Source: a virus. Taken from it: a DNA stretch of 64,000 nucleotides. The notes under the pieces are model-generated. The model was not told the origin of the DNA. It made no database searches and saw only the letters and a program-made list of their open reading frames with translations. Shown piece by piece: positions 3 to 62,912 of the stretch; within the stretch, counting starts at the first letter, position 1; every line of letters starts with the position of its first letter. The stretch lies in the IMG/VR virus record IMGVR_UViG_3300028388_001285, positions 17,998 through 81,997 of that record, one strand, 5' to 3'. The position numbers and the translations under genes are program-made.

Positions 3-914
3 GTAACTGAGCTTAGAGATAGATTAGTGAAGTTGGAAGAAAGCGGTAGGTGGAAGATGTTAGAGAAGAACGTATCATTATACTTAGACCCGAAATCGAA
101 AGAATACAATGGTGTCAATTACAAGATTGATGTCAAGAATAGGTTAAACCCTATCAACAAATACCCTTGGAAAGAATCCGAAAGAGAGGGCTGCGTGACT
201 ATTTATGAGTTTCCAAAGCTTATAGATGACAGAGTTCCGGAAGGAGCCTATATAATTGGACATGACCCTTACGCAAATGATGACCCAAGTGGCGAATCGT
301 TAGCAGCTGTTTATGTGCTTAAGACCAAGAAGCATTTCAGCAAGCTCGGACATGACGAAATAGTAGCTACTTATGTGGCACGTCCATATGCTGGACGACA
401 TGTCGTAAACGAAACTATACTCAAGCTATCTCTGATGTATGGTAATGCGAAGATTTACTTCGAGAACGTTCGAGGAAATGTGAAAGAGTACTTCGAAAAG
501 ATTAAGAAATTACACCTTTTAGCCAAACAGCCCACAACAGTACTGTCTAAGAAGGCTTCATATATGCATGGTTCTGCGGTAGTATATGGGTATCCCATGT
601 CAAGTAGAGCGATGAAGATGGAGGCTATACAATATGTTAGGGACTGGTTATTGGAAGAAAGAGAGGTTGACGGCGATAGAATAGTATACAATCTAGATAG
701 AATCTGGGATAGAGCCTTGCTACAGGAACTCATAGCCTTTAATATGGACGGTAACTTTGACCGTGTTATGGCGCTAGCAGGCTGCATAGTTGGGTTGAAT
801 GAGACCCATAACCAATACGAGAAAGAATTAGTCTCAGAATCTAAAGTAGACCAAGTAGTAAGCTTTCTAGTCGACAACTCATATATATTTAACAACACGA
901 CTAGACCATGATAG
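3..914 (+). CDS. terL: Terminase large subunit, C-terminal nuclease portion (gene begins before the window)
   Basis: Frame is open from base 3. RNase H-like motifs YIIGHDPY, YFEN and GNFDRVMAL; lies directly upstream of the portal gene. Ends TGA-TAG (909-914), so with TGA=Trp the stop is TAG. Confidence 0.93.
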
Positions 915-3298
915 AAACATTATCATTTCCAAAACAAAGGCTGTCCTATAAGAAAAAGGTGAGGGATAACAATAAGTGGGCGAAGAATATGATTGACCAC
1001 TTGTTAATGAATTATACTGTAGACACTGGCGACGGCACATTTAGCGGTTCCAATACACACAGGAAAAGGATGTTAACCAACTACAAGTTATTCAACAACC
1101 AAATAGATCAAAAGGACTTTGAGCGCGAACTCAATCCTCTTGGAATTGAGGTAGGACAGTTTAAAGATAACATTGAGCCTTACAACAAGGCTTACAACAA
1201 AATCCAAGTATTACTTGGTGAAGAATTAAAACGCCCATTGAACTTTAGAACTGTTCTAGTGAACAGTGACGGTATTAAATCCAAGCAGATGCATAAGGAT
1301 ATGATGCTCAGGCAGTTCATAGAGGCGGATATACAGGCGACGATTCAACAGCTACAGACTGGGGAAGAGGTCGACCAAAGCCTATTTGAGGGAATAGTAC
1401 CCCCTGAGGAGTTGCAGAAATACATGTCAACTACGTACTTAGAAGCCAGAGAGCATAAAGCCAACCAGATATTGAAGTATATGATCAAGTCACTCTCTGT
1501 AAAGGAGTTGATGAATGATGCATTTAAACATGCGTTGATATCAGGTATAGAATGTATGTGGGTAGGAGTGGAGAATGGTGAACCAACAGTTCAAGTACTG
1601 AATCCACTAGGAGTATTTTGGCACAAATCCCCTGAAGTAAAGTATATACAGGATGGTTTGTATGCTGGGTATAGGACATTTATGACTGCTGGCGACATCT
1701 TAGATAAGTTCGGACAGTACCTTGATGACAAAGACTTGAAGAAATTCGAGAATAGTGTACAAGGTATACACGGAATGCGGGACGACTTGGTAGGTAAACA
1801 GATGAAATATCCCAATACTACTGTGTATGATACGTACATGAATACGTACTATAACGCTAATCATGACGAAGGATCGTATGGCAGAAGTAAAGGAGAGGAC
1901 TGGTTAGTAGCTCACGTGGAATGGATGAGCCAGAAGCGAGTAGGTTTCGTTACCTATAAGGATGAAGACGGTCTTCCTAAGGATACTATAGTCGGAGAGG
2001 ACTTTGTAGTACCACCACATGCTAAGAGAACAACCAAAAAAGGAGAGTTCGGCAAGAAAGAGACTGTGTGGGAGTTCGATGGCATCACCCTGAAGTGGGG
2101 TTGGATACCAGAACCTTGGACAGGCATACGTATAGGAGAGGATATATACTGTTGTATGGGCCCGAAGAAGTACGTGAAGCGAAGTATGGATAACCCATTT
2201 GATGTGCAATTAGGTTATTACGGACTCACTTTAAACAATATGAATGCAGACAGTGTATCTCTGATGGATCGTATGAGACCCTTCCAGTACCTGTACTTCA
2301 TCATAATGCACAAACTAAAGAAACTTATTGCTAGGGATAGAGGCAAGTTATTCCATTTCGATACTAGTATGGTTGATCCAAAGATTGGATTAGAAAAAAC
2401 TATGTACTACCTAGAGGAGATGGATATAGACTTCTTTAACCCATTGCATAACGCAGAACAAGCTGGCTCGGCACAACGAGCTAAGGTAACTACCGCCACA
2501 GACAGGTCTAATATGCAGCATATACTTAATTATATCAACCTGTTAGTAGCATTAGATGAGCAGATATCAGATGTAGCTGGAGTAACCAGGCAGCGTGAGG
2601 GGCAGATTCAACCCTCTGAAGCAGTCACTAACTCTCAGCAGACTATCATGCAATCATCTACTATCACTGAAGCAGCGTATTTCTTCCCGCATTTCAAAGT
2701 ATGGGAACGTGTATTGAATGCATTAGTGAATGTAACACAGAGTTGCTGGAAGAATAAGTCAATATTAAAACAGTTTGTATTAGATGATCTATCTATACAG
2801 GCTCTGAAGCTGTCACCAGACGAGCTGAAGAACGCTGATTTTGGAGTATTCATCTCTAACTCTTCCAGAGACAACGAAGTATTTGAAAATTTACGTGGAT
2901 TAGCCCAGCCGTTATTACAGAATGACAAAGCGAAGTTTACTGATATCATACGATTATTGAAATCGGAGTCTATCGGAGAACTGGAAAGTCAGATTGAACA
3001 GTCTGAGAAGAGTTCCATACAGCAGCAGATGCAGGAAATTCAAGCTCAGCAGGAGGCACAGAGAGAAGCTACACAAGCTCAAGTACAGTTACAACAGGCT
3101 GAATGGGAGCACGAGAAAGACTTGCAAGCACAGAAAGATAATGCTGCAATGGAACGTGAGATCATCAAGGCTACTTCTTGAGGCGGAGACGTCAATGAAA
3201 ACGAGGTTCCGGATGTATTGGAAATTGCTAAATTCCAGAACCAAAGCCGATGAAAGGGCAGCAGAAGCCATCTAATGGCGAAAAATAATCCGCTATAG
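908..3298 (+). CDS. Portal protein (crAss-like)
   Basis: N-terminal FPKQRLSYKKK, SLMDRMRPFQYLY and AGVTRQREGQI are typical of crAss-like portals. TGA 3179 is followed in frame by GGDVNENEVPDVLEIAKF; a second TGA at 3251; next TAG at 3296-3298. The exact C-terminus is uncertain. Confidence 0.9.
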
Positions 3299-3366
3299 AA
3301 AACAGCCGTACTTTCGTTTAGCATATCATTTTATTTTGATTATAGAATTTAAAATTCGACATTTGT

Positions 3367-4551
3367 ATGAGTGAGAATGTACAACACAACGTTTCACTAG
3401 AAGATCTTGTAGGCTTTCTGGATGGGGAACCAACCGAAACTACATACAGGTCTGCTAACTTAGGTGTTGACCCTACAGAGGGAGACCCCGCACCAGCGGC
3501 TGATCCCACACCTGTGGAACCAAAGGAGGACAAAGATCCTATTGAGCCGGTAGAACCTAAACCGGCTGAACCAACTCCTGAGAAAGATCCTGAACCAGTT
3601 GAACCCACCCCTACCGAACCCACTACCAAAGAACCTAAACCGGATGGTGATGCAGGCGATCCTGCCCCAACCGATGGCATTAACTACGAGGCATTGTTCT
3701 CGCTGCTAGATGACATGGGGGCTTTAAGTGTGGGAGAAGATTTCGAGTTTGACGGTACCCCTGAAGGTATACAGGAAGCTTTAAAAGCTACTGATACCAG
3801 TAAACAGGAGGTAATCGCCAAGCAAATATGGGAAGGTATCCCCGAAGATTTCAGGGATGCTGTATTATATGGTGTAAATCAAGGTGGAAGTTTTGAGGAT
3901 TACGTTAAAGCCACAATCCCAAAGACTCTGGATCAACTAGATTTAGATACCAAGGTGGATCAGCGTAAAGCGATAACACTATGGTACAAGGAAACCACAC
4001 AACATAGCGATGAAAAGATCGAACGACTTCTAGATAGATTGGAGGCTTCCGATGCATTAGCAGAGGCAGCCGCAGAATCAGTAGAAGAGTTAGAAGATAT
4101 CTACGCTAAGAGGAAAAAGGACGTAGCAGCTACTGCTGCAAAAGCCAGAGAAGCTCAGATCGAGGAACAGACGCGCTGGCAAAACGAAATAAAAGACAAG
4201 ATTCAGTCTGCTGACTTCTTACGAGGTCGGCGAAAGAATAAGATCGCAGGGTTTATGTTCAACCCTGTAACTGTCGGTGATTCAACCCTCACCGGATGAG
4301 CGCGAACTCTTACCCAGATTGACAAAAATCCCGAACATACTTTACAATTAGCTAACTTGCTATTTGACTATGATCCTAAAAAAGGTGTCAACTACGATAG
4401 GATTACAGAAGAATTGCATTCACAAGCAACTAAGAGCTTCAGAGAAAAACTGGACTCTGTAATTGATGCTAAGTCTAAGGTAACAGGAAAGGGTAGCGCA
4501 ACGTCCCAACCAGAATGGAACTGGGACATATTTATTAAACAAAATGATTAA
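3367..4551 (+). CDS. Putative capsid scaffolding protein (acidic, Pro/Glu-rich N-terminus)
   Basis: Sits between portal and MCP. ORFs 3367..4299 and 4357..4551 are one frame joined through TGA 4297 (LTG-W-ARTLTQIDKNPEH). Contains a PVEP/PEP low-complexity tract. Confidence 0.75.
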
Positions 4552-4582
4552 TACCAATTTTTAGAAACAATCGTATTTAAAC

Positions 4583-6055
4583 ATGGCAACGACTAGAAGT
4601 CAGTTTATTATTAAACATTACGAAGGTTTCGGTGGTAACTTTATTGATTCTCAATACTTAGGCGCTTCTTACGAGACTGGCAAACCTCACGTATTTGAAA
4701 ACACTCTTATGAAGATCTACTCTTCTAAGAATCGCTTCTTTACGGGTAAGTTGCTTCTTGGCATGACCGGAGCGAAATCATACGGTACTGAAGAAATCGA
4801 CACCGAAATTTATCGCTGGCGTCTGCAAGGAGCAGAGGAAAGGTATGCGCGTTCATTGGAACACATTGACGCTTCTAACACTACCCCTGGTCTTAACGGA
4901 ACAACTTTCAAGATCAAATTGGATCTTGATTACTATGCCAACCCAGATGTATTGATGCCAGAAGATAATGATTTCCCATTGGAGATCGTTGATGGCCCAG
5001 TACAAGATGGCGAAGGTTATATCTACACTGTTAGACTCCAAGGAGATGACCCAACAACCTTCCTGCCTACCTACTTGTTAGATGAAGGAAGAGAGTTCAA
5101 CAAGGTTTGGACAAGCGTACCCAGTGAATACAACGAACGGTTTGGTACCCAACAGTACCCTGCAAGCTTTATGCTTGAGAACCAAGTTGGAGCATTCGCT
5201 CAGAAATTCACTGTTACAGATAAAGCAATGAGAGACGACGGACGTCTCGGTATCAATTTCTTATACACTGATCCTCGTACTAACAAGGAAATGAGTGTAG
5301 AGAAATTCCTGCCTATGGCTGAAGCTAAGATGCACGACGAACTGTATATGGGCATGGAAGCTCAATTATGGTACGGACGTAAGCAGACTAAGCCAGGTCA
5401 CAAGGATTACTGGATCAAGACTGGTTCAGGATTAAGAGAACAATTAGCCGATTCATGGATCGAGTACTACAACTCAGTACTTACCGTTAATCGTCTGAAA
5501 GACTACCTGATGGATATCTTCTTCACACGGGAAGATGAGCCGAATAGAAAGGTAGTAGCTATGACTGGTACACTTGGATCTATCATGTTCCATGACATGT
5601 TAGCAGTTGAAGCTTCCTCTTTCCTGACTGTGGATACAAACTTTACACAACAGTTAAGTTCTAACCCACGTCACCTGTCTTTCGGTGCGCAATTTACGCA
5701 CTATCAAGGACCAGAAGGTATCGAGGTAACCTTGGTCAAGAACCCACTCTATGATTCACGGAAGTACTGCAAGCGTATGCACCCGCAGTATCCTGAATTC
5801 CCAATTGATTCCATGCGGATGACATTTTTGGACTTCGGATCACAAGAGAAAGCTGGTAACATTATGATGCTTAAGGTCAAAGACACTTACCGTTACGGTT
5901 ACGTAATGGGAACTGTTGGACCGAATGGCCCCGTTAAAGGTGGACAAGCTGGTGCTCTGATTGCAGGGTACGACATGTTTACTGAAGGCACCGCAGGTGT
6001 CTGCGTGAAAGATGTTACTCGTTGTGGTGAATTGATCTATGACGACCAATACTAG
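4583..6055 (+). CDS. Major capsid protein
   Basis: 490 aa after the scaffold, with crAss-like MCP motifs (YRWRLQG, KTGSGLREQL, SFGAQFTHYQGPEGIEVTLVKNPLYD). Confidence 0.88.
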   Translation: MATTRSQFIIKHYEGFGGNFIDSQYLGASYETGKPHVFENTLMKIYSSKNRFFTGKLLLGMTGAKSYGTEEIDTEIYRWRLQGAEERYARSLEHIDASNTTPGLNGTTFKIKLDLDYYANPDVLMPEDNDFPLEIVDGPVQDGEGYIYTVRLQGDDPTTFLPTYLLDEGREFNKVWTSVPSEYNERFGTQQYPASFMLENQVGAFAQKFTVTDKAMRDDGRLGINFLYTDPRTNKEMSVEKFLPMAEAKMHDELYMGMEAQLWYGRKQTKPGHKDYWIKTGSGLREQLADSWIEYYNSVLTVNRLKDYLMDIFFTREDEPNRKVVAMTGTLGSIMFHDMLAVEASSFLTVDTNFTQQLSSNPRHLSFGAQFTHYQGPEGIEVTLVKNPLYDSRKYCKRMHPQYPEFPIDSMRMTFLDFGSQEKAGNIMMLKVKDTYRYGYVMGTVGPNGPVKGGQAGALIAGYDMFTEGTAGVCVKDVTRCGELIYDDQY

Positions 6056-9774: not shown

Positions 9775-10227
9775 ATGTCTTGTGAAATCAACGAATACTC
9801 TTCTCACGATTTCAATATTGTCAGCAAAGGCGACTGTGATCCTTGTCCAAGAGACACTGTTCTTGAGGTCAAGGATTCCGCCTTTGTAACTGACTTACAG
9901 GCATTCTATGCCCCTACTAGACTGTACTTTCCAGCTTCTAGTGTGCAAAGTCCTAAGGACGGAGCAATACTAATAGAACTGTACAAAGACGCGACAGTTT
10001 ACTGGAAATACCGATACGGGGACGATACTTGAATCCTCGTAGGTATAAAACGCGACGATGCGTATGAGTCTTTGGATGTCTCAGATCTAGACCACTGTTT
10101 TACAAAAGATGATGAGGGGGGTGACCCAGACGGAGATTTAGCTTGCTATATGTTGGAGATGATTACATGTGATTGTCACGTGTACTTGGAATACTCTTCA
10201 GATCTAGACTGCACCCTATTAACCTAA
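9775..10227 (+). CDS. Cys-rich hypothetical structural protein (150 aa, one TGA=Trp)
   Basis: Frame continues past TGA 10030 (YRYGDDT-W-ILVGIKRD) to TAA 10225-10227, just before the next ATG at 10232. Confidence 0.7.
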
Positions 10228-19917: not shown

Positions 19918-20436
19918 ATGAAATATCTACTGTCTTTACTACTGATGTTAACTATGATCATGAGCTTAAATGCTCAACGCAATGATTATAGACTATGATT
20001 TACACAACTAAGTGTACAAGCACCGATATGTATTGACGGAAGAACTGAAGCATACAAAGAGTTTGGGCACAGTCCTAACTTTGAGTGGGAGGCTGGATAC
20101 GAATGGCACTTGGATGCCGGATGAATCGCTCCAGTCACCCAACTCACGTATGCAGTTGACCGAGATATATTCAAGCATAAGTCTAGAAGTTACCTCCGAT
20201 TAAAGCAGGGGTTTGACTTCTTACCTGATGAAGATAGTGATCTCATAGTATTCTTACCTATTCGGAATATCAGGTTAACTGGATGGAAGTTCTGGAAAGG
20301 AGAATACAATTCCCCATTTCTTACCGAGATGCGCTGGAGGTACAACGACGATTGAAAATTTAGACTGGCTTGGGAATTCTATAAGGATACCTTTCTTGTA
20401 AGAGCCGGAGTCACAATAAACATATACAAATGGTAA
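19918..20436 (+). CDS. Signal-peptide-bearing, outer-membrane beta-barrel-like protein (172 aa; absent from the ORF track)
   Basis: MKYLLSLLLMLTMIMSLNA-Q signal peptide; TGA=Trp at 19996, 20122 and 20353; alternating amphipathic strands; ends VRAGVTINIYKW-TAA. It fills the gap between its neighbours exactly. Confidence 0.7.
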
Positions 20437-20909: not shown

Positions 20910-21211
20910 CCTATAAATGCGTTGCAACGCACCTGCGACATAAAGGCGTTCTAGAAAAGAAGTACGGCTTGCACTGCAAGACTGGGGACTGCTATGCGTC
21001 TATCGCAACAGAGTATAGAAATATATACTTTATTAGAAATAACTCTAGCTGTTTAGATACGGATTCATGCATTCCTACCAAACCTTTAAGTTGTACAGGA
21101 ACTCCCATCTGTCCAAGTATACTCAGTAATTGTGAACTCACATTAACTGATATTACACCGATAGATACAAACTGCACCGTATTTGGGATAGTACAAAACC
21201 CTACAGTATAA
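20903..21211 (+). CDS. Cys-rich hypothetical tail-associated protein
   Basis: 102 aa, overlapping both neighbours. Confidence 0.5.
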   Translation: MLTYKCVATHLRHKGVLEKKYGLHCKTGDCYASIATEYRNIYFIRNNSSCLDTDSCIPTKPLSCTGTPICPSILSNCELTLTDITPIDTNCTVFGIVQNPTV

Positions 21212-22701
21212 TGATAACAGTAACTATAAATTTAAGTATAACTGGAGGGACAGCCCCTTTTAAGTACTGGGTAACACACACTTGTCCAGACGCTGTTGTG
21301 ATAACGAATCCTACTGGCACATCTACTACTGATACTATAGATGTGACCGTACAGTTTCCGAACACGACAGTTCTAACTAATTGTGCTAACCTGTTTACTC
21401 TTAGAGTGGAAGACGCTTTAGGATGTATTGGAGAGTGGAGTATCGGATTTCATAATCCATGTGTAGATTTTTCTTTAGGCACTGTACAAAATTCTGCTCC
21501 ATATACCTACTGGGTTAGCCCTACAGGTAACAATGGACCAGTGACGTACTCATGGTCAATACCTTCATTCATGGAGTTCTTGAACAGTACCAGTACAGAT
21601 GACGTAATACATCTTAAGATTAAGGATAATTACTCACCTCCTGCTGGGGGTATATCTGGAACTATCACTGTCTTTGGTACCGATGAGGTAGGGTGTACAG
21701 CAACTGCTACTACTGTAGTCAGTGTATGTAAACCTACAGCATTTGAACAAGAGTACTCAGCTTACTGTACTGGTAACGGGGAAGACCCATTCTACATAGT
21801 AGAGTGGTTGCCGATCTGAGATCCAGCAATCTCTCCTTGTGAGGAGGGTCAGTGGGCTACAGTAAATGGCGTAAGCGATTCCATCAAGGATTGGTATAGA
21901 GTGGATACAGGGGTACAAGAAACCTCTATTAGCACTGAGTTAATATTTGACGGGAAGATACAAGCTAGACCATTCTTCAGTCAAGATTTAAGCTTAACAG
22001 ATCCAGTGACGTACAAGGCAGTTTACACAGTAACTACTTTGAACGGTGTTGTGACTGACCCTACTACTCTACTACTCACAGTATATCCATGTGAAGAGGG
22101 AGGAAGACCTATGGGCATTACTTTAAATGCACAGGCTAACTGCCTTGGAGATGATATAGAACTTGACTTAGAGGACATAGTACACTCTAGCAGTAGTACT
22201 ATTGACTGGACCACATTCAACATAATCACTGACGCAGCTGTTGCAGGAGCTACAACCTCTTGGGATGGTGTAACCAGAACGCTGACTTACAGCCCTGGTG
22301 TACTAGCTGGAGTAGATAAAGTTGAATGGGAAGTAGCTGATGCAAACGGTATATTCTCAGGAAAGATAAACATTTACTTTGATTTGGACTGTCCGGCTGT
22401 GATTACAGCCACTGACGACACGGCATGTGTAGTCTGCGGAACTACTACAAGTATAGACGTACTTGCAAATGACGTAGGAGACTTTGACCCACTGTCGTTA
22501 CAGATAGCTCAGTTCCCACAATATGGAGCTGCTACCGTAATCAATAACGAAATAGTTTACACCATCCCAGCCAATGTAGCTGGAACGGATGTAATCAAAT
22601 ACCAAGTTAAGAATAGAAATCATACCGGGGTATCTAACCTCGGAACCTTAGACATAGAAATAGTATGCGCTGGTTCAGATAACTCTACTTTAGCTTGCTA
22701 A
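21211..22701 (+). CDS. Ig-like/cadherin-like (Big_9-type) multidomain fibre protein, one TGA=Trp
   Basis: ORFs 21211..21819 and 21901..22701 are joined in frame through TGA 21817. Motifs ITGGTAPFKY and ATDD...TSIDVLAND...PQYG...IVYT...GTDVIKYQV. Confidence 0.75.
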
Positions 22702-23736: not shown

Positions 23737-24450
23737 ATGGCTGACTTTCTTTTAAAAGATTTTGACATACTTAATGGTGGAGACGGTACTCCATCTGTAG
23801 TAGATCCAGGAGGAGCTTGGAGATTAACCGCAGCCCCCGAAGATTACAATGGATACATTCGTTTCGATACTCCACCTAATGGAGATCAGGCGGTAGCCGT
23901 TGGGCAATTACTACCCGGAGACGATGATCCCAAGATCTTGTTCACAACTGGCAGAGGTAAATTCGTTCTGACGTATGAACTTTCTGGAGAATGTGATCAG
24001 ACCGACGACTACACGATGTGATACATGGAAAATGATTACTTTGTCCATGCCAAGGATATAGGCGTTATAGCAAATGGCGACACTTTTGATAGCAAGGTTT
24101 TGTCTTGTTACCACCGATCCGATAATCCTGGATTACCGTCTACTAGCAGCGTCAATGATGAGGACTGCTGGTTCACATTCACGACACCCTCTTCTGGGGG
24201 ATTCATTGGACAAAGTTTGAGTATTGACAGTATAAATACTGACGAGCTGGAGAACCCACAAATTCGTATTTACTCTGATTACGATACCGAGATTAATGAA
24301 ACCTCTGTTATTACAACCTCTTCGCAGCAACGTAGAGAATACACAGGAGTAAACAAATGGACTACAAATACTCAGTATTGGGTATGGGTGTCTAATCTAA
24401 ACACTAGTAGTCCTGGAGGGGAATTTAGATTTACATTTCAATGGTACTAG
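23737..24450 (+). CDS. Ig-like paralogue with C-terminal beta-sandwich domain, one TGA=Trp
   Basis: ORFs 23737..24021 and 24025..24450 are in frame through TGA 24019. DPGGAW N-terminal motif; DCWFTFT...QYWVWV domain. Confidence 0.7.
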
Positions 24451-25893: not shown

Positions 25894-26652
25894 ATGGCTA
25901 CAAGATTAGAACACATTTACGCGATACAAAATCAGTATCACAGAGGGTCTAAGCCTGACGATGCTAAGTACCCTTCCAACCGATTAGTGGAACATTTTCT
26001 AAACACTATGAGGGCGTTGCTGGTTAAACGTAAACAAGACAAGCACTACACTATATCGCCAATGACATATCAGACTGTGTGCATACCTCTAGAGGTTTCT
26101 TCCTATGAGGAGTGCAGCTGTTTGGATGAGGAGATTCTACCGCTGTTGGAGGATTGTACTTTACTGAAGTCTAAATGTCCACTACCGTCCGAGATAACAT
26201 CTAGGTGGGGTACATCAATAGACGTCAAGTATTTGAATGGTAATCCAGTCCCACGCACTAGTATGACCTCTAACAAATATGCTCCCTACTCGTTAGCAGG
26301 AGCTGGACAAGTCGAAGGTTGGTTTATAGGAGACAACTCATACTTATATGTAATCAACTCAAGCATGTTACAAGTGGTACTCGCCAGAGCTTTATGGGAG
26401 AACCCAGCAGACCTAGATGGCTACTGCGACTGTAATGAAATCACCATAGGAGGTGGTAGTAACGGTAGCGGAAGCACTACATGCCATGACTCACTTACAG
26501 AGGAATACCCGATTGACGCTGAGTTAGTCGAACCTCTATACAGTATGGTTATGGATAAGTTGTATAGGTCACAAGCACTTCCCATCGACAACATGAACGA
26601 TGGAAGAGAAGTTGAACACCTAAATGCATTAGATCCTAATGAAAGACAATAA
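25894..26652 (+). CDS. Tail ring protein
   Basis: Likely start MATRLEHIY (ATG 25894). Motifs SNRLVEHFLNTMRALL, YQTVCIPLE, LWENP and EYPIDAELV resemble crAss-like ring proteins. Confidence 0.7.
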   Translation: MATRLEHIYAIQNQYHRGSKPDDAKYPSNRLVEHFLNTMRALLVKRKQDKHYTISPMTYQTVCIPLEVSSYEECSCLDEEILPLLEDCTLLKSKCPLPSEITSRWGTSIDVKYLNGNPVPRTSMTSNKYAPYSLAGAGQVEGWFIGDNSYLYVINSSMLQVVLARALWENPADLDGYCDCNEITIGGGSNGSGSTTCHDSLTEEYPIDAELVEPLYSMVMDKLYRSQALPIDNMNDGREVEHLNALDPNERQ

Positions 26653-27091
26653 GAGATCTTATACTCTACAAGACATCTACGAACAGTACGACAACCCCCA
26701 CGACCTAGACAAAGCAGACTATATAAAAATATGCAGGGCATTTAATTACTACCTAGTCCGATCACTTATCGAGACTGGGTATGCTTATAAATTACCCCAC
26801 ACACTAGGCACAATTTCCATACGTAAACGTAAGGGAGGTGGAGGACTACTGAACTTTAAACATTATAATGAGACTGGTGAGAAGGTTTATTTAAAGAACA
26901 AACACTCTGAGGGATACTACTGTAAGTGGATTTGAAATAAGTCCAGACCCCAGTGTGTACTCAGAGATCCACAGTTGTATTCTTTCAAAGCTACTAGAAC
27001 TAATAATAGGGCTTTAGCTAAGGCTGTAAAAGGCAAGAACACAATGAAAAAATATTTTACTTATGACAAGAATCCGGTATACATCAATTAA
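26639..27091 (+). CDS. IHF/HU-like DNA-binding protein (crAss-type), one TGA=Trp
   Basis: YKLPHTLGTISIRKRK and NKHSEGYYCKWI-W-NK...LYSFKATRTNNRALAKAVK; reads through TGA 26933 to TAA 27089-27091. Confidence 0.75.
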
Positions 27092-27980
27092 ATCGGTTCT
27101 ATACGATTTGTCTACGCTTGTTCCAGAGAACGAATGGAATGACTTAAAGTTTACGGAGTGAGCTATTAAAGCCCTACGTAAGTTGAAGTCTGAAGTTAAA
27201 TTAGAAGAGGCCGTAGCTATTAGGAATCTAGTAGAACACAAAGCGCAGCTGCCTAACGATCTAACGTATCTTACGCAAGTTGCCTACCGACCAGAGTTAC
27301 CATCTGATGAGATAGAGGAACTCACACGAATCATGAATCTCCAAGGGGAAGAGTGGAACACAGCGGTAACAGACCATATGTTTAATCCTAGCGGACTTCC
27401 AGAGAAAGCCGTACGATCATTATATGCGTCTGGTTTGAACAAGTGGTACCCAATGCGAGCTTCTAGTTCTCCATTTATGTCTGGAATACTTATTACTGGC
27501 ACTCCTTACAACAGCGTAGATTGGACAACTCCTAACTTGCAGGGGGATCACGAATACATAGTCGATTCAAGCATGTGCTTAACGTCGACGCTCTCTGATG
27601 CGGTGTTAGCTATATCGTATATGAGATACCCCGTAAAAGCTAATGGGGACACACTTATACCCGACGATGAGGATTTGAAAGAAGCAATAGTACACTACTG
27701 TCTGTATAGATACTGGTTGACTAGAAGTTTCTTACGTGAACCAAACGCCGACAAAGAAAGAGACTATCATCTGTCACGGTACGAGGTGTTAATGGCCAAG
27801 GCTGGCGGAGAATTAAACTTACCTACTTTAGATGAATTAGAAAACCTCAAGAACCTGACTAACCGATTAGTTCCTAGATCTAATCAGTACGACAACTTCT
27901 TTAGTAAGTTGAACAACAGGGAATCTGCTGACACCATGTCACACTGAGGTAATCATGATACTAACAATTATGCCAACTAA
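27063..27980 (+). CDS. Tail tubular/ring protein (P22 gp4-like), TGA=Trp at 27159 and 27945
   Basis: ATG 27063 gives MTRIRYTSIKSVL...FTE-W-AIKAL, in frame with 27183..27947. Motifs LIPDD and PTLDELENLKN. Ends TAA 27978-27980. Confidence 0.75.
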
Positions 27981-30900: not shown

Positions 30901-32262
30901 GGACCAATTACCAGACTCTTCACCGACAAGGATAACCTATTCGCACTATCCACTAAAGCTTTATGGACTGTACCTACTAGGCCACAGACGTTGCAAACAT
31001 CTGAGGGTACTATATATGTAGGTACAGGAGATGCGTTGGCACTACCGCCAAAGCGTGTAGTTTATCCTGGGTTTGCTTACGGAGGCACTAAGGATATATT
31101 GTCACTAGTCAGTACAGAGTATGGGAGTGTATGGGCAGATAGTCTAACAGGTAAGGTATTTCATTGGCGAGGACAATTGGAAGAGATCTCTTCTAATGGT
31201 ATGCGTAACTGGTTTGAAGAGAATACTAAGTCTAAGATAAAGGAACAGATGTTTGCTTTCTCTTTGGAGAACAACATACCAAGCGTACCAACTGATTTAT
31301 ATGGTGTAGGTCTAGTGGGCACGTATGATCCTAGATATCGAAGATACATATTAAGTTTCCGTGACTACGAGATACTTGACATGGAGAACTTCGAAGGTGG
31401 TGTGGAAGGATTTGAATCATTAACCTCTTACAATCCTAGTAAGCTATACTTTGACCTAACTGCGGGAGACTTCTTTAGGGTTAAGTACATTGCTGCTACT
31501 GGTTGGTACAAATTACCTATACCGTATTTGGATAGAAACACATTCCGTAACAGATCTTGGACGGTGTCATATTCATTTCCACACAAGGCTTGGGTGAGCT
31601 TTCACTCATACTTACCAGCATACATGTTCAATGATGAAGATACATTCTATACTGGATTACATAATAGTCTGTGGATGTTCACACATAACTACGGGGAACA
31701 TCAGAAATACTATGGAAAGAAGTACGACCATATACTAGACTTTATCGTGAATGAGCAACCAATACTGGATAAGACTTATAGTAGCCTTAAAGTAATAAGT
31801 GATATCAGTCGGTATGATGAGGAACACGAGAACTATATAGAGTCTCTGCTAGAGTTCTTCACATATGGTATGTTCTACAACTCCAACCAAACTAGTGGTA
31901 AGCAACAGATATTTAGGAAGGACGGTTCAAGTCCATTCTTGTCTACATATGATAACCAGAATCAAATGGTACTGGCAGAGAAAGTAGATGAGCACTGGAA
32001 TATATCTGGGTTTAGGGATCTAGGTATAGGACATAACTCCTACCCAATATGGACAAACGCTTGGGATGAAGTACAGTCTGACTATTATATAGATAAGGTA
32101 CCTAACCCGGAAGCCATTGAGACAGACAAGAGTCTGTTTAATCACGGCAGGTTTAGGGATGCTTGGCTAGGCGTACGACTATACCATGATGGTGAAGTAC
32201 AAGGTAACTACAGAATAAACACTGACCTAATTAATACACTACAAAGAATATCTTATAGGTAA
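27970..32262 (+). CDS. Tail stabilisation/muzzle protein (P22 gp10-like), ~1430 aa, TGA=Trp at 29701 and 30163
   Basis: Motifs NTFQAGMNKD, CLNFSTKHPV, YMRDEVYAF, YPYRIMYSEKS, SWTVSYS and WVSFHSYLP. Three track ORFs are in one frame. Confidence 0.88.
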
Positions 32263-35200: not shown

Positions 35201-35375
35201 GATGGCAAAAGGACAGCGCATGGGCAACTTAGCCACAGCGTTTGGTCAGACACCGATAAATTTGGGACAAGCTATGAACCGACAGGCTGCTAATCAAGAG
35301 GCTGTTAGATGGTACATGCAAGCTATTGACCCAGCATTGGCCGCGTCGATTAAGAAACAAATGAACGTAAGATAA
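32262..35375 (+). CDS. Cargo/ejection protein with lysozyme-fold (GH73-like) domain and LysM domain
   Basis: AQMRKEG...NPMNVG...FKTPEAGF...YATSPYY at ~33480-33760; LysM-like YSLKEGDTPYEIADKLGL...LPVGYEL at ~33890-34055; recurring YxxGG motifs; Ala/Pro/Thr linker. Confidence 0.7.
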   Translation: MAKQKEELEYNLGGDIGTGLSAAAPMMSAIPGWGAIAGMGMSALGGFLQSRQNDAPATYQQTQSNTNPYGYVKGGTIKEVIPGIAQVKADTSAENRDGAPDSVQVNMGGTTIELAGDEVVLLNEKNKGGSLGDKLQGGFVLSNALTIPGTDKTFASAAEAPLNMLKNDENPALARQMLQNLADLNQKELIKSNNSSEYKSGGKLTNPPNNDPEYTIHALAPGQSTKEFARDALERYGVTDAEAVKALEDDLQESNQFEPWQMANRLSRNYRKSQQRIKVPKDMTKYVTMFDYLKDEKYVGGKDLPFWNLDDTRKFYTKNKPLRKPKGARAIMPGMSTSKYHVPANPAKGIPAYGNMDEFPEEALRGHIDKVLGNYKKKFKRHGKSDKLWNTDQVIAGLKALHDDTGYVAPVDLLFAQMRKEGAFNPSDGGRSKYTNPMNVGETDSKTIYKFKTPEAGFYAWGRLLYSDYLSHRTREDLYSKKEAFKNHGDNRYATSPYYEVGGYDEKNRYHIGVKQAVDQYRKMMVEDPEAAKAGKAQKKINTYSLKEGDTPYEIADKLGLDRDAFLELNRLASNKEEAKSTGLIDPSTLPVGYELIYEDDLPKAQVKISPKAQVRMTKAKPEREGSVPSNLKYFMPAGMVLGRKEGGYIGYNNGGPIEHDDPRMGDIMQHVVTALDIEDPASQEDFLNDMASRYANMWNEGQFNNWDTFLDYVSKPKDMATAQGFLNGVPGPPPSRAGLAQALAGLYGNTSAAPVAQTSAAPAPVTTPAATARTTPAATTTPAPTSFNPSTPFNPLVRTAPQITSPALAASRTAAGTAAVNNVGNMNITPSPVATPNKFGRFMENLGGAFKGGGAGTALQIAGALGQGAMALFSNQGEQAAHTVPNRYREQQYNPASQLLANQRSFSGALDMARNSASGFGQLMSRGQQSYANKMAADRTTLDRAQLMNNRYQQQYDRSTHALANQNANRMWKTDQVNKMAKGQRMGNLATAFGQTPINLGQAMNRQAANQEAVRWYMQAIDPALAASIKKQMNVR

Positions 35376-37183
35376 TGGCAAAGTATCAATATTTTAAACT
35401 ACAGGCTCCACAATTTCAGCTAGAAGAGACTCCGATACAACCAATGCTACAAGCACTTGGGTACAGACAAAAGAGATTCGATGCCGCTTATGAACTAGCT
35501 GGAGACTTAGAGGACCAATACATTGACGCCCTCCCTAAAGATAGGGCTAGGGCTGACGCAATACAAGGTGGCTGGCGTAAAGAGATTGACGACATGGTCA
35601 AAAAGTATGATGGTGATTACTCTCAGATGTATAAAGATTTGGGGGGATTGAAGCGTCGTATGACTAGAGAACTCACGCCGGGAGGTGAGGGTTACGAGAT
35701 AGGACAATCTAAGGCACGCATGAAGGCAGCCTATGAAGCTGGTAAGAAGCAATTAGCTGGCGAGAAGATCACAGGTGACATGCTTAATAACTGGTACAGG
35801 TACACTATGGATAGCTACGGAGGCGTACAGAAAGATCCTACTACTGGAGCTTGGACTGGCATACAGCCAGAAGACATAGGAAACTATGTAGATCCGTATG
35901 AACTTGGACTAGAAGCTGTTAAAGAACTTGTCCCAGATACATGGGAATACTCACGCACAGACGCTAGCGGCATGTACTTCTACGATAAGAGTGGTAAGGA
36001 GAAATATTTATCACAGGATAGAATCCGAGAAGCTGTTTCCAATAGATTGTCCAGCGATGAACGCTACTGGAATATGTTACAGCAGGAAGCTAAGTGGACT
36101 GGACGTCCAATGTCATCTGTAATGAATAGATTCCAAACCGATGTTACAGCATTCGATCCATTCGCCTACTCACAGACAGAGAGTGGTAGTGGTATGAGAG
36201 CAGACAGCGCAGCTATATATGCTGACAAGAAAGCTATGTTAGAGAATTGGAGACCAGATAGTAGGCCAATACAACCAGCAACTCCAGCTTTCAACAACGC
36301 TATGAATATGCCTGACTTTGGTTACACTACAGAGACTGAGGGATACGATCCCGAATTAACGGCTGAGTACTTCGGACACGGCATTAAGCAGAAAGGCACA
36401 GCTGATGACCAACTAAAAGCTTATTATGAAAAGCTAGAGGGACCATTCAAATCAGCATTCTACAAGACTATGCGGGGCGCTAAGGCAACTGAGCAAAGAG
36501 CTGCTTACGAAAGAGGAGACATGAGTCAAGAAGATTACTATGGATTCGTACAAACTAAATGGAAACAAATTGCTGATAGGGTTGGAAATTACAATAATAC
36601 ATTGTATAAGTATCCTAACGAGTACAAGAACGATGACCTAGATAATTGGGCAGCTATGGCTCAGAATGCTCAGTGAAGAGACATGACTGGTAAGAAGGTT
36701 AAGGTACCGAAAGAAGTTGGGGCATTAAAGAATACTGGAACTTCTAGAGCCACTAAGCTAGGGTGGTATCCACAAGGACCGATAGCAACTGGACAAGTGT
36801 TTGGTGAAATGGTCATTGATCCTAACAATCCAAAGAAACAATACATCGTAAGTAGAAGTGACAAGGTATCTGGTAACATGAAAGGTATAAATGAGTTGAG
36901 ATCTCCTTACTATACGGGCAAACCTAGTGGGAAAGTACCAGCTCGTATCAAATACCAAGGTATAGATGTAGGTGTGCTAGCTAGCACTAGATTAGACAAT
37001 AACCTTAATTTTGTTGTAGACTTATATGATCCAGCTAATCCTGGCGAGGTCATAGACACCATAGAGGATGAAATGTCAGTAGGAGACTTCATGGACAACA
37101 TGAATGTAGAGGCTGTAAAGAACGTTGTAGGAAATTCAGGTTTAGGTAGTAAAGCACTATTATTCGGAGAAGAGTTAGATTAA
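35375..37183 (+). CDS. Cargo/ejection protein, one TGA=Trp
   Basis: ORFs 35375..36676 and 36683..37183 are joined through TGA 36674; lies between the cargo gene and the vRNAP gene. Confidence 0.65.
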
Positions 37184-56806: not shown

Positions 56807-57091
56807 TTAGAAATATGGCTCCTGTTCGTCTCAGTAATCATCGTCTTCATGGTAATAAAACTCAGGATCTTGGGACTCTTCCATGAATTCACACCAATCA
56901 GTGATCTTTAGGTATTTGTTATTTCCTCCAAATTCAAACCCTCAAGCCCTGTAGAATTCATGTGGTGTCATTTTCTCTATATCAGAAAATAAACTAAGTT
57001 CTGCAAGTTCCTGTAGCTGTTCTATATCCATATTCGAAACCATTTCTTCAGCTAACGTTGAAGTAGCTTCAAATTTAGTGTACTCTTTCAT
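56807..57091 (-). CDS. Acidic hypothetical protein (94 aa, two TGA=Trp; absent from the track)
   Basis: The ATG overlaps the upstream TAA (TAATG). Reads MKEYTKFEATSTLAEE...FYRA-W-GFE...DDDY-W-DEQEPYF-TAA, with TGAs at 56942-56944 and 56831-56833. Confidence 0.65.
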
Positions 57092-57944: not shown

Positions 57945-57945
57945 G

Positions 57946-58233: not shown

Positions 58234-58255
58234 TCTACCTTATTTGATTAACTAA

Positions 58256-58558
58256 TTATTTCTTGTCGAGAGTAATCTCTACCATGCCATCAGGGTATGA
58301 TAACTTGTAGTATTTGATTACTCCTTTTTTCATTTCAGCAGCCTGTTCATTAGGCTTGTCTAAAGATTTCAGGTACCTGACACCTAGTTCATTGATACCT
58401 AAAAATCTTAGTGCGTAACGTTTAATCCCACCAGATTTATTAATCCTCCGTATCAACCCCAAGTCTTGCTTAGAAAGATGTAGCATGTCTAACATCTCCG
58501 CTTTTGTTAAGGGTCGTCCACTGATTCTACGTCGTAGCCAATCATGTTCTTTGCCCAA
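58256..58558 (-). CDS. Hypothetical basic protein
   Basis: 100-aa ORF. Confidence 0.55.
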   Translation of the reverse strand: MGKEHDWLRRRISGRPLTKAEMLDMLHLSKQDLGLIRRINKSGGIKRYALRFLGINELGVRYLKSLDKPNEQAAEMKKGVIKYYKLSYPDGMVEITLDKK

Positions 58559-58583
58559 TATAATGGCAGCCCGATGGATCGCA

Positions 58584-59153
58584 CTAGATCCTGTGGGTTG
58601 TGGCTTTTTTCGGAATGAATTCTTTATCCCAGTTCAGAAGTTTACGAGTCTTTTTCTCATCATACATAAATATTTCATTATACTTCTCAGGCTTACTTCA
58701 TACTTCAGCTCCTGAAGGTAATGTTGTGTTTAATGTGTCTTCCCAGTACTCCTTTAATTCAGGATCTTTGGAAAGAATTTGATAGTTAGTTGAATTCTTA
58801 TCTCTAAAGTTTAGTCGTACATATTTCTTATCTATCTTTGAATACTTACCCTCTAAGAAAGGTTTAATTACTGTTACATAATCTTTCTTAGGTAATTCAA
58901 ATACTACCATGATATGTTCATCATATGGTTCATAGCAGTCCACAAATTGATCGTGGGCTTCCATCTTATCCATAATATTATCAGGTAGCTTTGCTAATTC
59001 GAACAATAAGAACATATGTTTACCTCATTCATCTAAGTTGCCTTCATTTCAGACTACATCTCCGATGAACGAAGTTACTAACCCATAGTCCAGAACATAA
59101 TCCAGATCTTTTAGTAATGGGAATAGAAAGGATAAGCTTTTTTGTATATACAT
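58584..59153 (-). CDS. Conserved hypothetical phage protein (~189 aa, three TGA=Trp)
   Basis: ATG 59153 abuts the upstream TAA. Reads MYIQKSLSFLFPLL...FLEGKYSKIDKKY...GAEV-W-SKP; TGAs at 59049, 59025 and 58698; ends at TAG 58584-58586. Confidence 0.7.
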
Positions 59154-60167
59154 TTATTCAAATAGGTCAAGTTCGATGTCCCCATGTTGTTCATATATAT
59201 TACGTGGGAACTCTCATTTATCTGTTTTAATATGCCACTTCAAATCATCTATTAGTTGATCAATGCCTTTAACTGTTGTTCTACCTCCTCTCAGTGTACC
59301 TCCGCTGAGCCCCGCTCTTATATCATTATCGGAACATGAATACACTATGGCAGGGGCAGGATTTGGTCTAGTTTCTACGACCAAAAACTTAAAGGGCTTC
59401 ATGGAAAAATTATTTGAAATAGCTTCACTAATAGCGCTTTCTTCATTAGTATATATTGGTAACAATTCTAACCCTTTTGTATAAAAAGCGGCTTGTCTGT
59501 AGTATCCAAATTGTTGAAAGCTCTTAGGAAATGAATATGCACTTTTACCTGTAGACTTTAAGTCTCATGGTTGGATAGATTGTTCATTGTAATCTATTGT
59601 AACTCCATCCATAAAACCTTTACATAACATGTCCTTGTATTCGAACTGAAGTTCTAGCTGGTAAAAATGTTTTACGTCTTTTGATTTAGTAAAGTACTTT
59701 CCAGTAAATGGAGAGTTCATTACTGCGGCAGCAGATTCAACAGCTATTTGATATTCATCTTGTGATAGTATATCCCTATCGTTCACTTCGCATTTTTCTT
59801 TGTAGAAGTTCTTAGCTGTATCGCTGCTCCAAAATATATTAATAACTCTTTTTAGGTTGATTTTATACCCAGCTATATTGTAAGCATCTCTGTACTTAGC
59901 AATTGCTGATGTGGCCGTTAGTCCACAAGGTAACGCTTCGGTAAATTTACCTAGCAATCCTTGAGGTCTTTCGGATTTAGTTACTACAAATAGATTATCC
60001 CACTGATCAGGAGTAGTTAAAATACAATCAATCGCACTACCAATTCTGAAGTATTTAGTATCTATTACTTCTTTATCTCCATCCATTCATTTACGTGCGA
60101 ATAATGGGTTATCTATTAATGTTGACAACAGGCTATTAGATATCCTGTATTTTAGGTAATCACTCAT
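59154..60167 (-). CDS. PD-(D/E)xK exonuclease (RecE/ExoVIII-like), ~337 aa, three TGA=Trp
   Basis: Motifs ISNSLLS, IGSAIDCILT, CKGFMDGV, IQP-W-DLKST, YYRQAAFY and FKFLVVE; TGAs at 60087, 59565 and 59214. Confidence 0.85.
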
Positions 60168-60574
60168 TCTTTTATTAGTTCTATGGTTCGTTTTATTTCG
60201 GTCTTATTACTTGGCATGAATAAATATCATTGTTTATCATTGTCGTTACACCATTTCTTAAATAGTTTTCATTTAAGCCTAGCTTGCGGTGTAAAAAATC
60301 CTTTAGTCTCTATCACTCAAGGCTCATCAATACCAACAAAGTCTGGTTTATATTTCACAGCACTCTGTTTTTTTCTTTGTGGCTTGTAAGTCTTGGTTTT
60401 AGAACCAATCTTTTCTCAGCTAGGTAACTCATATATAAATCCGTCGAGTAAGATTATTTCGAAGGGCTCATATTCAAACTTGAGCCCTTCTTCAGTTAAT
60501 AGATTATAACAATACCGTTCTAATTTAGAACGAAATCGTTCGACGGGTATATTTCCGTACTTATTTTCTTTCAT
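60152..60574 (-). CDS. T7 endonuclease I-like Holliday-junction resolvase (absent from the track)
   Basis: Motifs FRSKLE, FEYEP, YKPDF, VIETKG and LK-W-KLFK. Internal TGAs at 60416, 60317, 60269 and 60227, plus one at 60164 before TAA 60152-60154. Confidence 0.85.
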
Positions 60575-60615
60575 GCCTATAAAATAGGTAATTTAACCTC
60601 AAATTCCTAATAGAA

Positions 60616-62007
60616 CTACTCCAGAAGTTTTATTCTGAGGGCATGTTTCTTTAATAATTTTTTCCAATAAGGCTTAGCTTCCTCTTTTGAGAGATGTTCG
60701 ATTGCTGTCACCTTTCCATTGATAAACGTGTAACGTTTTCTTGAAAATAATGGTACATACTCTCCGCTAAAGGCTTTAGTTCTTTCTAAGCTTGAGGCTG
60801 ATGTATCGTAATGAAACGAATTATAGTACTTCAAATCCTCCATCGGACTTAAGGCACCTACCCATAGCGGGCCAGCGTTATGCCCACTGAGATCTAACAC
60901 GGTCATATTCTTGTAGATTTCTTCGGAAGTGTTTTCCATTAAAGAAGTAGCAGCTACTCCATTCTTAAGTAGTACTCCCTTATGGAACCACAGTTGATAC
61001 AATGGAATATTCTCTTTAAGTGGTGTTCCGCTGATATCCACAAGCTCTCCGTCTCTTTCACTGTAAAAGATACCATGTTCATCGACAATTACCTTATCAT
61101 GGAGTCTAGTCCCCCTTATGCGGTAATGCCCCCAACCATAACTAATCATAAATGCATTAGCAGGGTTAGTAAATCCAGCATCTTTGTAAACGCTGATTTC
61201 CTTAGTGACTTTCTGATTATCTATATTTACCGGAGTTAATCGGCTCATAGAGTAAACAGATTCAACGTAAGAATTTTCAATTCGAAGTAACTCGTTTTTA
61301 GGGAGTTGTTTTACGTATGGAGAGACTGATATCTTTGCAACAGGATCTCGCATTAGATTAGCAAGCAATTCTATAGCTTCTTTATCATCTCCTATCCAGA
61401 TACCGGCAGTACGGTTATTTTCGTCATAGTAAGACAGCTGATATTTAGGGGGAGTTGGGATAGTACTAAAACCATCAAACATCCATAATACACCAGGGTT
61501 GGCGGTATATACCCACCCTATGTCACAGACTCCGTTAAAATCCTCTAGAATGTGCTTAAGCCTGCCTGTAGCGACGTGTTCAGCAATTATGGTAGAATCA
61601 TGCCCAGGGTCTGAAAAGTCTTCAGCATTGAAGATACTACCGTTATGGTAGAACACAACTTCTTTATCACCATCGTAAATAAGTGGCTGAGTATAGTCTG
61701 GATCTTCACTCATACTAAAGCCTTGTCGATAGTGTGCTATGACAGTTTCTTTTTCTCCGGGGAATGTCTTGGGAACAGTAATATGTTTGGTAAGTAATTC
61801 AGTAAAATCCTTGGCAGGGTACATAAACTTATCATCCTCTGCTGGATTCGCATGACGACTACCGTAAATTTTACGATAGTTTCCTAACGAATCAATTACT
61901 ACCAATCCAACACCGTCAAGATCCACATCCACTTTATCGTGGGCTAATAATAGAAATTTCAGGTACGTGGGGTTTAAACCCACGCCCTGATGCATTATTG
62001 ATCTCAT
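60616..62007 (-). CDS. Class II glutamine amidotransferase (Ntn)-like protein, degenerate
   Basis: DGVG, IAHYR, HNGSIFN and DS motifs are present; there is no N-terminal Cys nucleophile. Confidence 0.65.
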   Translation of the reverse strand: MRSIMHQGVGLNPTYLKFLLLAHDKVDVDLDGVGLVVIDSLGNYRKIYGSRHANPAEDDKFMYPAKDFTELLTKHITVPKTFPGEKETVIAHYRQGFSMSEDPDYTQPLIYDGDKEVVFYHNGSIFNAEDFSDPGHDSTIIAEHVATGRLKHILEDFNGVCDIGWVYTANPGVLWMFDGFSTIPTPPKYQLSYYDENNRTAGIWIGDDKEAIELLANLMRDPVAKISVSPYVKQLPKNELLRIENSYVESVYSMSRLTPVNIDNQKVTKEISVYKDAGFTNPANAFMISYGWGHYRIRGTRLHDKVIVDEHGIFYSERDGELVDISGTPLKENIPLYQLWFHKGVLLKNGVAATSLMENTSEEIYKNMTVLDLSGHNAGPLWVGALSPMEDLKYYNSFHYDTSASSLERTKAFSGEYVPLFSRKRYTFINGKVTAIEHLSKEEAKPYWKKLLKKHALRIKLLE

Positions 62008-62912
62008 GCGTGATTTTTTAAGAAATGTGCTTGATTAGAAAGCATTGCTTTACGTTTGATTATCACGGGCAAAGCTCTCTTAATATTGGCTGCGGCATCT
62101 ATCGTGTGTGGGTTATCGAGCGAGATATCACACCCCGGAATACAATCCAGGAATGAAAACTCCTTCTTATACTCGTTGTAACCTACGAAAATAGTTCCAA
62201 GATCAATATCAAGTTCCATCAAACACTGGAGTAGCAGATCCATCACACTATTCCATTCGGTTGGTAAAATAAATTTCTCAACGTAATCAAATTCACCTTC
62301 TTCAGTGAATTGAATGGATGCCGAGTAAATATCTCCATTGTCTCTGTAGACAGTCGGAGTTTTATACTTCCCGCCTTTCTTCTCGTACAAGTTACAGTAC
62401 TTCACTTCCACTCCACGTAACCAAGGTGAGGCTACAATGAAAAATTCATCTGTAGTCATAAAAGCTTTTTCTACGAAGAAGGAATTCCAGTTTCCCTTCC
62501 TTTGTAACTCAGTAACTACTTGTAAGAAATCATCCATATTCATACAGTTGATATCTTCCTGGGTAGTAGCTGCTGATTGTTTTCGAACACTCACCGCACA
62601 ATTAGGGGCAAAATGTTGCATGTATTTATCCAACATAATCTTATTCCCCTGAATAAAATTGGAAAGTGGTGTATGATTTCCCGGAACAGGAAGTCCAGTA
62701 CTTTCCCATAAGTCTCTGACATGCAGCCTGTCCTTTGACATACGAACCGCTAATGGGTCGTTTATTTGTAGTGCAGGACGATTATCAAAAGAACGTGCTC
62801 CACTACCAAGCGAAATATTAGCTCGGAAAGGTAGCTCAGACATGTCTAAAAATAATCGTCTAATATCAGGGCTAAGCCCACAAAAGGTAGGCTTAAAAGT
62901 TCTCTTTCCCAT
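61995..62912 (-). CDS. ATP-grasp (RimK-like) protein, divergent
   Basis: INDPLAVRMSKDRL, GLPVP, FFVEK...EF and LDIDLGTI motifs; adjacent to the amidotransferase. TGA 62004 reads through to TAA 61995-61997. Confidence 0.55.

Follow-up and report, generated by a model that had tools for sequence, protein, structure and literature searches.

A divergent crAss-like phage very probably reads TGA as a minority tryptophan codon and carries a five-arm tRNA(UCA)

Introduction

Recoding of TGA to Trp and of TAG to Gln, suppressor tRNAs and rapid switching of the code among relatives are known for crAss-like phages (Yutin et al. 2021, PMC7886860), and the same recoding phenomena were described in many gut phages (Borges et al. 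2021, preprint 10.1101/2021.08.26.457843). Suppressors were detected in about 35% of code 4 genomes in the latter study, where the route by which they are charged was left unresolved. Here we describe a stretch of 64,000 nucleotides (nt) of the IMG/VR virus record IMGVR_UViG_3300028388_001285, referred to as the window, in which genes on both strands are interrupted by in-frame TGA codons. An earlier note on this DNA, made from its letters, had proposed that these codons encode Trp. Our analysis confirmed the observation and supported its interpretation: this divergent crAss-like phage very probably reads TGA as a minority Trp codon, decoded most likely by its own tRNA(UCA), which the TrpRS of the host would charge. 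The recoding itself is of a kind already published for crAss-like phages (Yutin 2021; Borges 2021). The architecture of the decoder is a departure from the published systems, and the question of charging is thereby directly testable.

The phage and its closest relative

The record is 81,997 nt long, lacks a terminal repeat and was estimated to be about 81% complete (CheckV). The window is its right 64 kb (bases 17998-81997), and positions below are those of the window unless marked as genome positions. A Crassvirales-type phage is expected to have a crAss-type portal, major capsid protein and TerL among syntenic structural genes, and PHROG profiles for the portal (phrog_6547), major capsid protein (phrog_11589) and TerL (phrog_6681) were matched. 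In tblastn searches against catalogued phages almost all matches were crAss-like, with identities of about 30% for the portal and 21-25% for the exonuclease. Since the matches were almost only to crAss-like phages and at low identity, we assign the phage, on these matches, to a divergent crAss-like (Crassvirales-type) lineage.

Among complete genomes, the nearest relative found was an IMG/VR contig of 106,629 nt with direct terminal repeats (G001), whose capsid protein is 76% identical. G001 uses the standard code, with 29 of its 95 open reading frames (ORFs) ending in TGA (31%), and none of its alignments contained an in-frame TGA. Close relatives of the exonuclease and of the protein encoded at 60616-62007 were not found in the IMG/VR look-ups.

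Read-through of in-frame TGA codons

ORFs were delimited by TAA and TAG only, and TGA codons were counted in frame within the window. Thirty-nine were found, two of which (21133 and 21148) lie upstream of a likely start at 21211. The remaining 37, 23 on the plus strand and 14 on the minus strand, are distributed over 18 of the 38 ORFs, in agreement with the "at least 33" on both strands counted in the earlier note. The window ORFs contain 260 TGG, and TGA makes up 12.5% of the Trp codons. The interrupting codon is always TGA, and neither TAA nor TAG occurs inside genes; judged from the sequence, TAA and TAG are the only reliable stops of the phage.

When coding density was compared under the two codes, as the earlier note had suggested, greedy ORF coverage increased from 0.865 under code 11 to 0.937 under code 4 (+7 points), compared to 0.909 and 0.915 for G001. 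The lengths under code 4 matched those of the G001 orthologues (394 and about 395 amino acids (aa), 496 and about 497, 1435 and 1435, 337 and about 339, and 6033 and about 6022 aligned). Homology runs on across at least 24 TGA sites. TGAs fall within the PHROG matches for the portal, the exonuclease, the resolvase and two unnamed families, and in cr7_1, cr111_1, cr108_1 and crAss001 the exonuclease and resolvase homologues run through the TGA sites on the minus strand. These comparisons show that TGA is a sense codon, read through on both strands.

The opposite view, that TGA is an ordinary stop and that same-frame neighbours, pseudogenes or assembly errors mimic read-through, would suit the few TGAs that are located in ATGA stop/start overlaps (909 and 62006) or 1-10 codons from a TAA or TAG. 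However, the homology that crosses the sites, the orthologue lengths, which fit read-through only, the exclusive use of TGA as the interrupting codon and the occurrence of Trp at the crossed sites as frequently as at TGG columns (see below) leave it next to no probability. Annotation under code 11 fragments TerL, the portal, the 6033-aa gene, the exonuclease and the resolvase and hides several genes, and code 4 is required.

Some other measures were tried and rejected. A coverage comparison in which each stop was recoded in turn was dropped because recoding of TAA raised the coverage too, and the homologue-based tests were used instead. Counts of internal TGAs in stop-to-stop ORFs were also dropped, since antisense shadow ORFs dominate them and G001 scores 86. 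TGA-rich ORFs on the minus strand of the left arm (e.g., genome 12230-13912) were discarded as antisense to GroEL.

The amino acid at TGA codons

In order to avoid circularity, TGA codons were masked as X in the queries. The aligned residue of G001 was Trp in 8 of 21 TGA columns (38%) and in 59 of 147 TGG columns (40%). Since Trp accounts for only about 1.4% of residues, the share at TGA columns is beyond chance (binomial P < 1e-8 for 8 of 21). A Codetta-like likelihood was calculated over 22 masked TGA columns, and its substitution profiles were derived from these alignments themselves. Trp ranked first, ahead of Tyr by 6.3 nats and ahead of Cys, Ser and Gly by about 29, 30 and 44 nats, respectively.

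Among IMG/VR relatives, the column of TGA 26933 is Trp (TGG) in 79 of 79, that of TGA 27159 is Trp in 7 of 12, and that of TGA 29701 is Phe, Tyr or Trp in 51 of 71. The sequence contexts quoted in the earlier note were all recovered. FTE-W-AIKAL, EF-W-AKD and LK-W-KLFK align to Trp encoded by TGG in G001, and GYGQIW with TGG (around 16004), GYGQLW with TGA (17582) and YNLVV-TGA-G (14408) are present in the window. Taken as a whole, the alignments support Trp as the best-fitting reading of TGA.

A five-arm tRNA(UCA) outside the window

No tRNA was found within the 64-kb window. The sole tRNA of the record is located at genome 10731-10824 on the plus strand, 7173-7266 nt before the first base of the window, and its anticodon is UCA (ARAGORN, Rfam). 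The earlier note had placed a suppressor tRNA-Trp(UCA) and/or an RF2-countering factor outside the window. The tRNA and its anticodon were indeed there, in a body that is not that of an ordinary tRNA-Trp, being of class II length with an extra arm; no release factor was found in the record (see below). Between its anticodon arm and its T arm lie 23 nt that fold into a 5-bp helix capped by the loop G-U-C-C-A-A-A, which is the anticodon loop of tRNA-Trp.

To define the family, IMG/VR was scanned for a UCA anticodon loop followed by a standard T loop at class II distance, with the sequence of the extra loop left free. Of 95 stretches returned, 29 have a true anticodon stem and are tRNAs; U-C-C-A-A was observed in the extra-arm loop of all 29. 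In an alignment of the 27 distinct tRNAs, which come from phage contigs, 94.9% of the cells were paired and the covariation was 0.709, compared to 0.19 when shuffled. All five helices covary, and in the extra arm each of the five pairs shows compensatory changes. RNAalifold independently recovered the five-arm structure, and a single-sequence fold gave the same five arms. The five-arm architecture is solid. G73 is nearly invariant in the family and A1-U72 is found in 22 of the 27 tRNAs, with G1.U72 and G73 in this phage; most members have a tRNA-Trp acceptor of the AGGGGC type.

The pattern that includes the CCA loop matched only 9 times when 185,579 prokaryote species were searched with one genome per species. 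The 9 matches all lie on contigs of metagenome-assembled genomes, and 6-7 of them are five-arm tRNAs. The five-arm design is essentially phage-borne. Ordinary short-arm tRNA(UCA) genes are found in phages as well, at least 15 among the 120 matches listed. No published description of a CCA-loop arm was found in the full-text literature, with subscription journals mostly outside its coverage. Among the 29 loci that carry the tRNA, about 8 show local density gains suggestive of TGA recoding (L100, L115, L116, L148, L157, L158, L169 and L180).

The tRNA of this phage (L014:10731-10824) and L169:5242-5338 have in common a non-Trp-like acceptor stem and, between this stem and the D stem, an unusual linker of 4 nt (UAGA). 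Since this acceptor and linker differ from those of the family majority, the two-armed design, with a UCA arm and a CCA-loop arm, is present on at least two tRNA bodies. In L103 a two-armed tRNA is located in the same place as here, upstream of GroEL and TerL. The GroEL of this phage (genome 12762-14438, plus strand; phrog_5725, E 9e-153) lies between the tRNA/tmRNA genes and TerL, and the adjacency of tRNA(UCA) and GroEL recurs in L103, L105 and L158, all with a two-armed tRNA. G001 is without any tRNA, yet has GroEL and TerL. A tmRNA-like gene was observed 1.1 kb downstream of the tRNA(UCA), at genome 11897-12222 on the plus strand, about 5.8-6.1 kb before the window. It matched RF00023 with 45.7 bits (gathering score 47; E 1.8e-15) and was called as tmRNA by ARAGORN too. 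Such a gene might help to recycle ribosomes that read through the UGA stops of the host.

The shape of the decoder raises the question of whether TGA encodes Ser, selenocysteine (Sec), Cys or Gly instead, as the tRNA resembles class II or Sec-type tRNAs and could be chargeable by SerRS. Both ARAGORN and Rfam called it Sec-like, and a long arm together with G73 are SerRS determinants in E. coli (PMC9976931). The identity of tRNA-Ser does not depend on its anticodon. However, the nearest Rfam family, tRNA-Sec (RF01852), scored 36.2 bits, which is under its gathering score of 47, and the acceptor/T helix is 7/5 and not the 13-bp helix (8/5 or 9/4) of tRNA-Sec. An invariant Trp anticodon loop in the extra arm would not be needed for recognition by SerRS. 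Although the long arm and G73 are both present, the TGA columns reject Ser by the roughly 30 nats given above, Cys and Gly are disfavored by the same likelihood, and one TGA falls on an invariant Trp. A residue other than Trp is therefore very unlikely.

Decoding and charging

With TGA read as Trp, the phage tRNA(UCA) would decode TGA after being charged with Trp by the host TrpRS. The RF2 of the host would still compete at each TGA, and each TGA would act partly as a stop until the tRNA is abundant. In the 82-kb record, which is about 81% complete, neither an RF-1/RF-2 domain nor a TrpRS or other class Ib synthetase was matched. The lack of a matched release-factor or synthetase gene would also suit a host that itself uses code 4, with the phage merely matching it. 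Nevertheless, the phage has its own tRNA(UCA), TGA provides only a small minority of its Trp codons, and G001 ends nearly a third of its ORFs with TGA, which makes a code 4 host highly improbable.

Trp identity in bacteria is determined by G73, the first pair A1-U72 and the anticodon bases C34, C35 and A36 (PMC9976931). In the tRNA described here G73 is present, the decoding anticodon is UCA, and the extra-arm loop is the one place where CCA is found. Hairpins in mRNAs that mimic anticodon arms are bound by synthetases, for example the thrS operator by ThrRS (PMC9976931). By analogy, the extra arm may be a decoy Trp anticodon arm, in which case TrpRS would read the U-CCA-A loop and G73, the UCA arm would be left to the ribosome, and one molecule would separate charging identity from decoding. 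We put this forward tentatively and give it somewhat less than an even chance. A corresponding Gln-anticodon decoy arm was sought in amber suppressors. The first pattern caught the D loops of ordinary tRNAs, and a stricter pattern gave 3 matches, of which the one examined was an ordinary tRNA-Gln, providing no evidence either way. If true, the decoy arm would explain how phage suppressors are charged without a synthetase of their own, a question raised by Borges et al., and the CCA-loop arm would be a ready-made design for opal-suppressor engineering.

Several points weigh against the reading of TGA as Trp by way of this tRNA. About nine of the TGAs sit in ORFs without homologues in the sets compared, where the basis is frame continuity. 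The near-terminal TGAs at 909, 27945, 60166, 62006 and perhaps 56833 could equally be Trp codons or old stops with a nearby TAA or TAG as backup. Folded as a single sequence, the tRNA does not exceed its shuffles in stability (z -1.2), and the support for the structure comes from covariation. With regard to charging by TrpRS, a class-II-length variable region and G73 are SerRS features too, and the nearest Rfam family is that of tRNA-Sec. Since the record lacks roughly 19-25 kb of the genome, other decoders or release-factor genes may exist.

Distribution of TGA and traces of the code switch

TGAs were found both in virion genes and in the exonuclease and resolvase genes of the minus strand, as the earlier note had stated for virion and DNA-metabolism genes. 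Recoding is not confined to the late virion genes, which is less usual, yet has a precedent in the TGAs of a Zeta-group polymerase (Yutin et al., PMC7886860). As for the interrupted genes named in that note, the scaffold-like, fibre-like, exonuclease and resolvase genes were recognized, whereas the labels "muzzle" and "vRNAP" were unconfirmed, PHROGs giving "virion structural protein" for 27955-32262.

The use of TGA is uneven. In a recombination block of three adjacent genes on the minus strand (58584-60574), which comprises a gene of unknown function, the exonuclease and the resolvase, TGA accounts for 11 of 17 Trp codons (65%), compared to 26 of 280 (9%) elsewhere (Fisher P 2e-7). The G+C content of the block is 0.36-0.37, compared to 0.41-0.45. 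Because the TGA-rich block is lower in G+C, mutation bias may account for part of the pattern; the block could reflect such bias, could be expressed later, or could have been acquired from a phage with heavier recoding. At the other extreme, TGA is absent from 5473 consecutive codons of the giant ORF that include 49 TGG, which is improbable if use were uniform (P 0.0015).

Given that TGA is Trp, it could in addition serve mainly as a timing gate, in which RF2 would stop translation at early TGAs until the tRNA builds up, with TerL, the recombination genes and others made at full length only late. Such regulation was proposed by Borges et al. (preprint 10.1101/2021.08.26.457843). In TerL, TGAs are located upstream of the window at codons 39, 74, 80 and 86, and then none occurs until codon 762. 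The surrounding sequence is conserved, and codons 39, 80 and 86 align to Trp and codon 74 to Leu in G001. The TerL of L103 (1-1854, minus strand), which is 45% identical, is interrupted by in-frame stops at codons 74 and 80, two positions common to both phages. Permutation within genes showed a slight excess of TGA relative to TGG among the first 100 codons (P 0.007), and the genes flanking the tRNA (genome 8.4-15.8 kb) are free of TGA. On the other hand, TGA is not favored at the first Trp position of genes (P 0.5), it is absent from the major capsid gene and from many further late genes, and mutation bias may suffice for the TGA-rich block with its lower G+C. We regard such a gate as possible but unlikely; it would add to the reading of TGA as Trp and not replace it.

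Traces of the switch are visible in what appear to be old TGA stops, which were replaced by TAA or are backed by a nearby stop. The TGA at 27945 is about 5 codons past the orthologue's own TGA stop in G001, with a TAA ten codons later in this phage, and looks like an old stop. The 1435-aa gene, equal in length to its G001 orthologue, ends with TGA in G001 and with TAA here, and TerL closes with TGA-TAG. The recoded phage and its standard-code relative G001 form a natural pair for the study of the onset of a code switch.

Genes of the window

The features are listed in Table 1. The phrog_6547 match of the portal reaches residue 780, its homologues extend past both TGAs, and the G001 orthologue ends at about 804. 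Conservation in five relatives extends over the 83 residues that follow TGA 4297 of the scaffold-like gene, with Phe, Leu, Phe, Phe and Phe in the TGA column, and the G001 orthologue ends at about 395. In the fibre-like ORF, TGA 17582 has TGG counterparts both in G001, where the residue is Trp, and in an internal repeat; 10283 and 14408 are placed by frame continuity.

The giant ORF falls into four pieces under code 11, whereas its counterpart in G001 (85863-105902) is one unbroken ORF of 6680 aa under code 11. Its TGAs at 37653 and 38481 are Trp in G001, and the C-termini of the two orthologues coincide. The search of this ORF against PHROGs gave only one weak and unrelated match, to an exonuclease family. 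On the minus strand, the TGA columns of the exonuclease hold Trp, Phe, Ile, Met or Tyr across G001, cr7_1, cr111_1, cr108_1 and crAss001. The phrog_190 match of the resolvase-like gene covers four TGAs, of which 60319 and 60271 are Trp in G001 and 60271 is also Trp in cr7_1.

In the relative L006 (5860-8099) the capsid homologue was found to be split into residues 1-260 and 258-485, with about 780 nt between them. This gap looks like the insertion of an intron or homing element.

Table 1. Features of the window and their in-frame TGA codons.
Feature	Coordinates	Strand	In-frame TGA	Remarks
TerL, 3' part	3..914 (gene start 1374 nt before the window)	+	909 (last codon, 762)	phrog_6681; TGA directly followed by TAG
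Portal	908..3298	+	3179, 3251 (codons 758, 782 of 796)
Scaffold-like	3367..4551	+	4297 (codon 311 of 394)
Major capsid protein	4583-6055		none	PHROG profile
Small ORF	9775..10227	+	10030	Frame continuity
Fibre-like ORF, 2650 aa	10232..18184	+	10283, 14408, 17582
172-aa ORF	19918..20436	+	19996, 20122, 20353	Frame continuity
496-aa ORF	21211..22701	+	21817	G001 orthologue about 497 aa
237-aa ORF	23737..24450	+	24019	Frame continuity
150-aa ORF	26639..27091	+	26933	phrog_12177 match covers the site
305-aa ORF	27063..27980	+	27159, 27945
Virion structural protein, 1435 aa	27955..32262	+	29701, 30163	PHROGs
602-aa ORF	35375..37183	+	36674	Trp (TGG) in G001
Giant ORF, 6033 aa	37194..55295	+	37407, 37653, 38481, 54903
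94-aa ORF	56807..57091	-	56944, 56833	Frame continuity
189-aa ORF	58584..59153	-	59051, 59027, 58700	Trp, Tyr, Trp in G001
PD-(D/E)XK exonuclease	59154..60167	-	60089, 59567, 59216	phrog_412 match covers two
Holliday-junction resolvase-like	60152..60574	-	60418, 60319, 60271, 60229, 60166	5 of 6 Trp codons
305-aa ORF	61995..62912	-	62006	In ATGA overlap, TAA two codons on; old stop or Trp, ambiguous

Comparison with known systems

In the code 4 of Mycoplasma and Spiroplasma, UGA is also read as Trp through the anticodon UCA. There the recoding is cellular and genome-wide, and TGA is the main Trp codon, whereas here it is phage-borne and TGA is a minority codon (12.5%).

The closest systems are the code 4 crAss-like phages (PMC7886860; 10.1101/2021.08.26.457843). 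They share with this phage the Crassvirales-type genome, TGAs in TerL, the portal and other conserved genes that align to Trp, a phage suppressor tRNA and a standard-code relative. The present lineage differs in being divergent (about 30% portal identity), in having its TGAs densest in the exonuclease/resolvase block and in the five arms of its tRNA. The "code change module" of the TGA-recoded Jade phages, which consists of a suppressor tRNA, TrpRS and RF1 (Borges preprint), is similar in that the suppressor tRNA is located among TGA-free genes, upstream of the recoded ones. In contrast, TrpRS and RF1 were not found in the 82-kb record here, and a tmRNA-like gene and GroEL adjoin the tRNA.

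With regard to the extra arm, the anticodon-arm mimics such as the thrS operator bound by ThrRS (PMC9976931) are likewise hairpins that copy a cognate anticodon loop and follow the same kind of identity rules. Those hairpins are in mRNAs and regulate translation, whereas the one described here is inside a decoding tRNA, where binding by TrpRS is hypothetical. Class II tRNAs, tRNA-Sec and allo-tRNAs (Mukai et al. 2016, PMC5389517) also have G73, an elongated arm placed between the anticodon arm and the T arm and, in some, the anticodon UCA. Compared to these, the phage tRNA has a 7/5 helix and not 8/5, 9/4, 8/4 or 9/3, and its extra arm, attached through long single-stranded linkers, consists of a 5-bp helix and a 7-nt loop in which U-CCA-A is invariant; most members of its family also differ from them in a Trp-type acceptor (A1-U72, G73).

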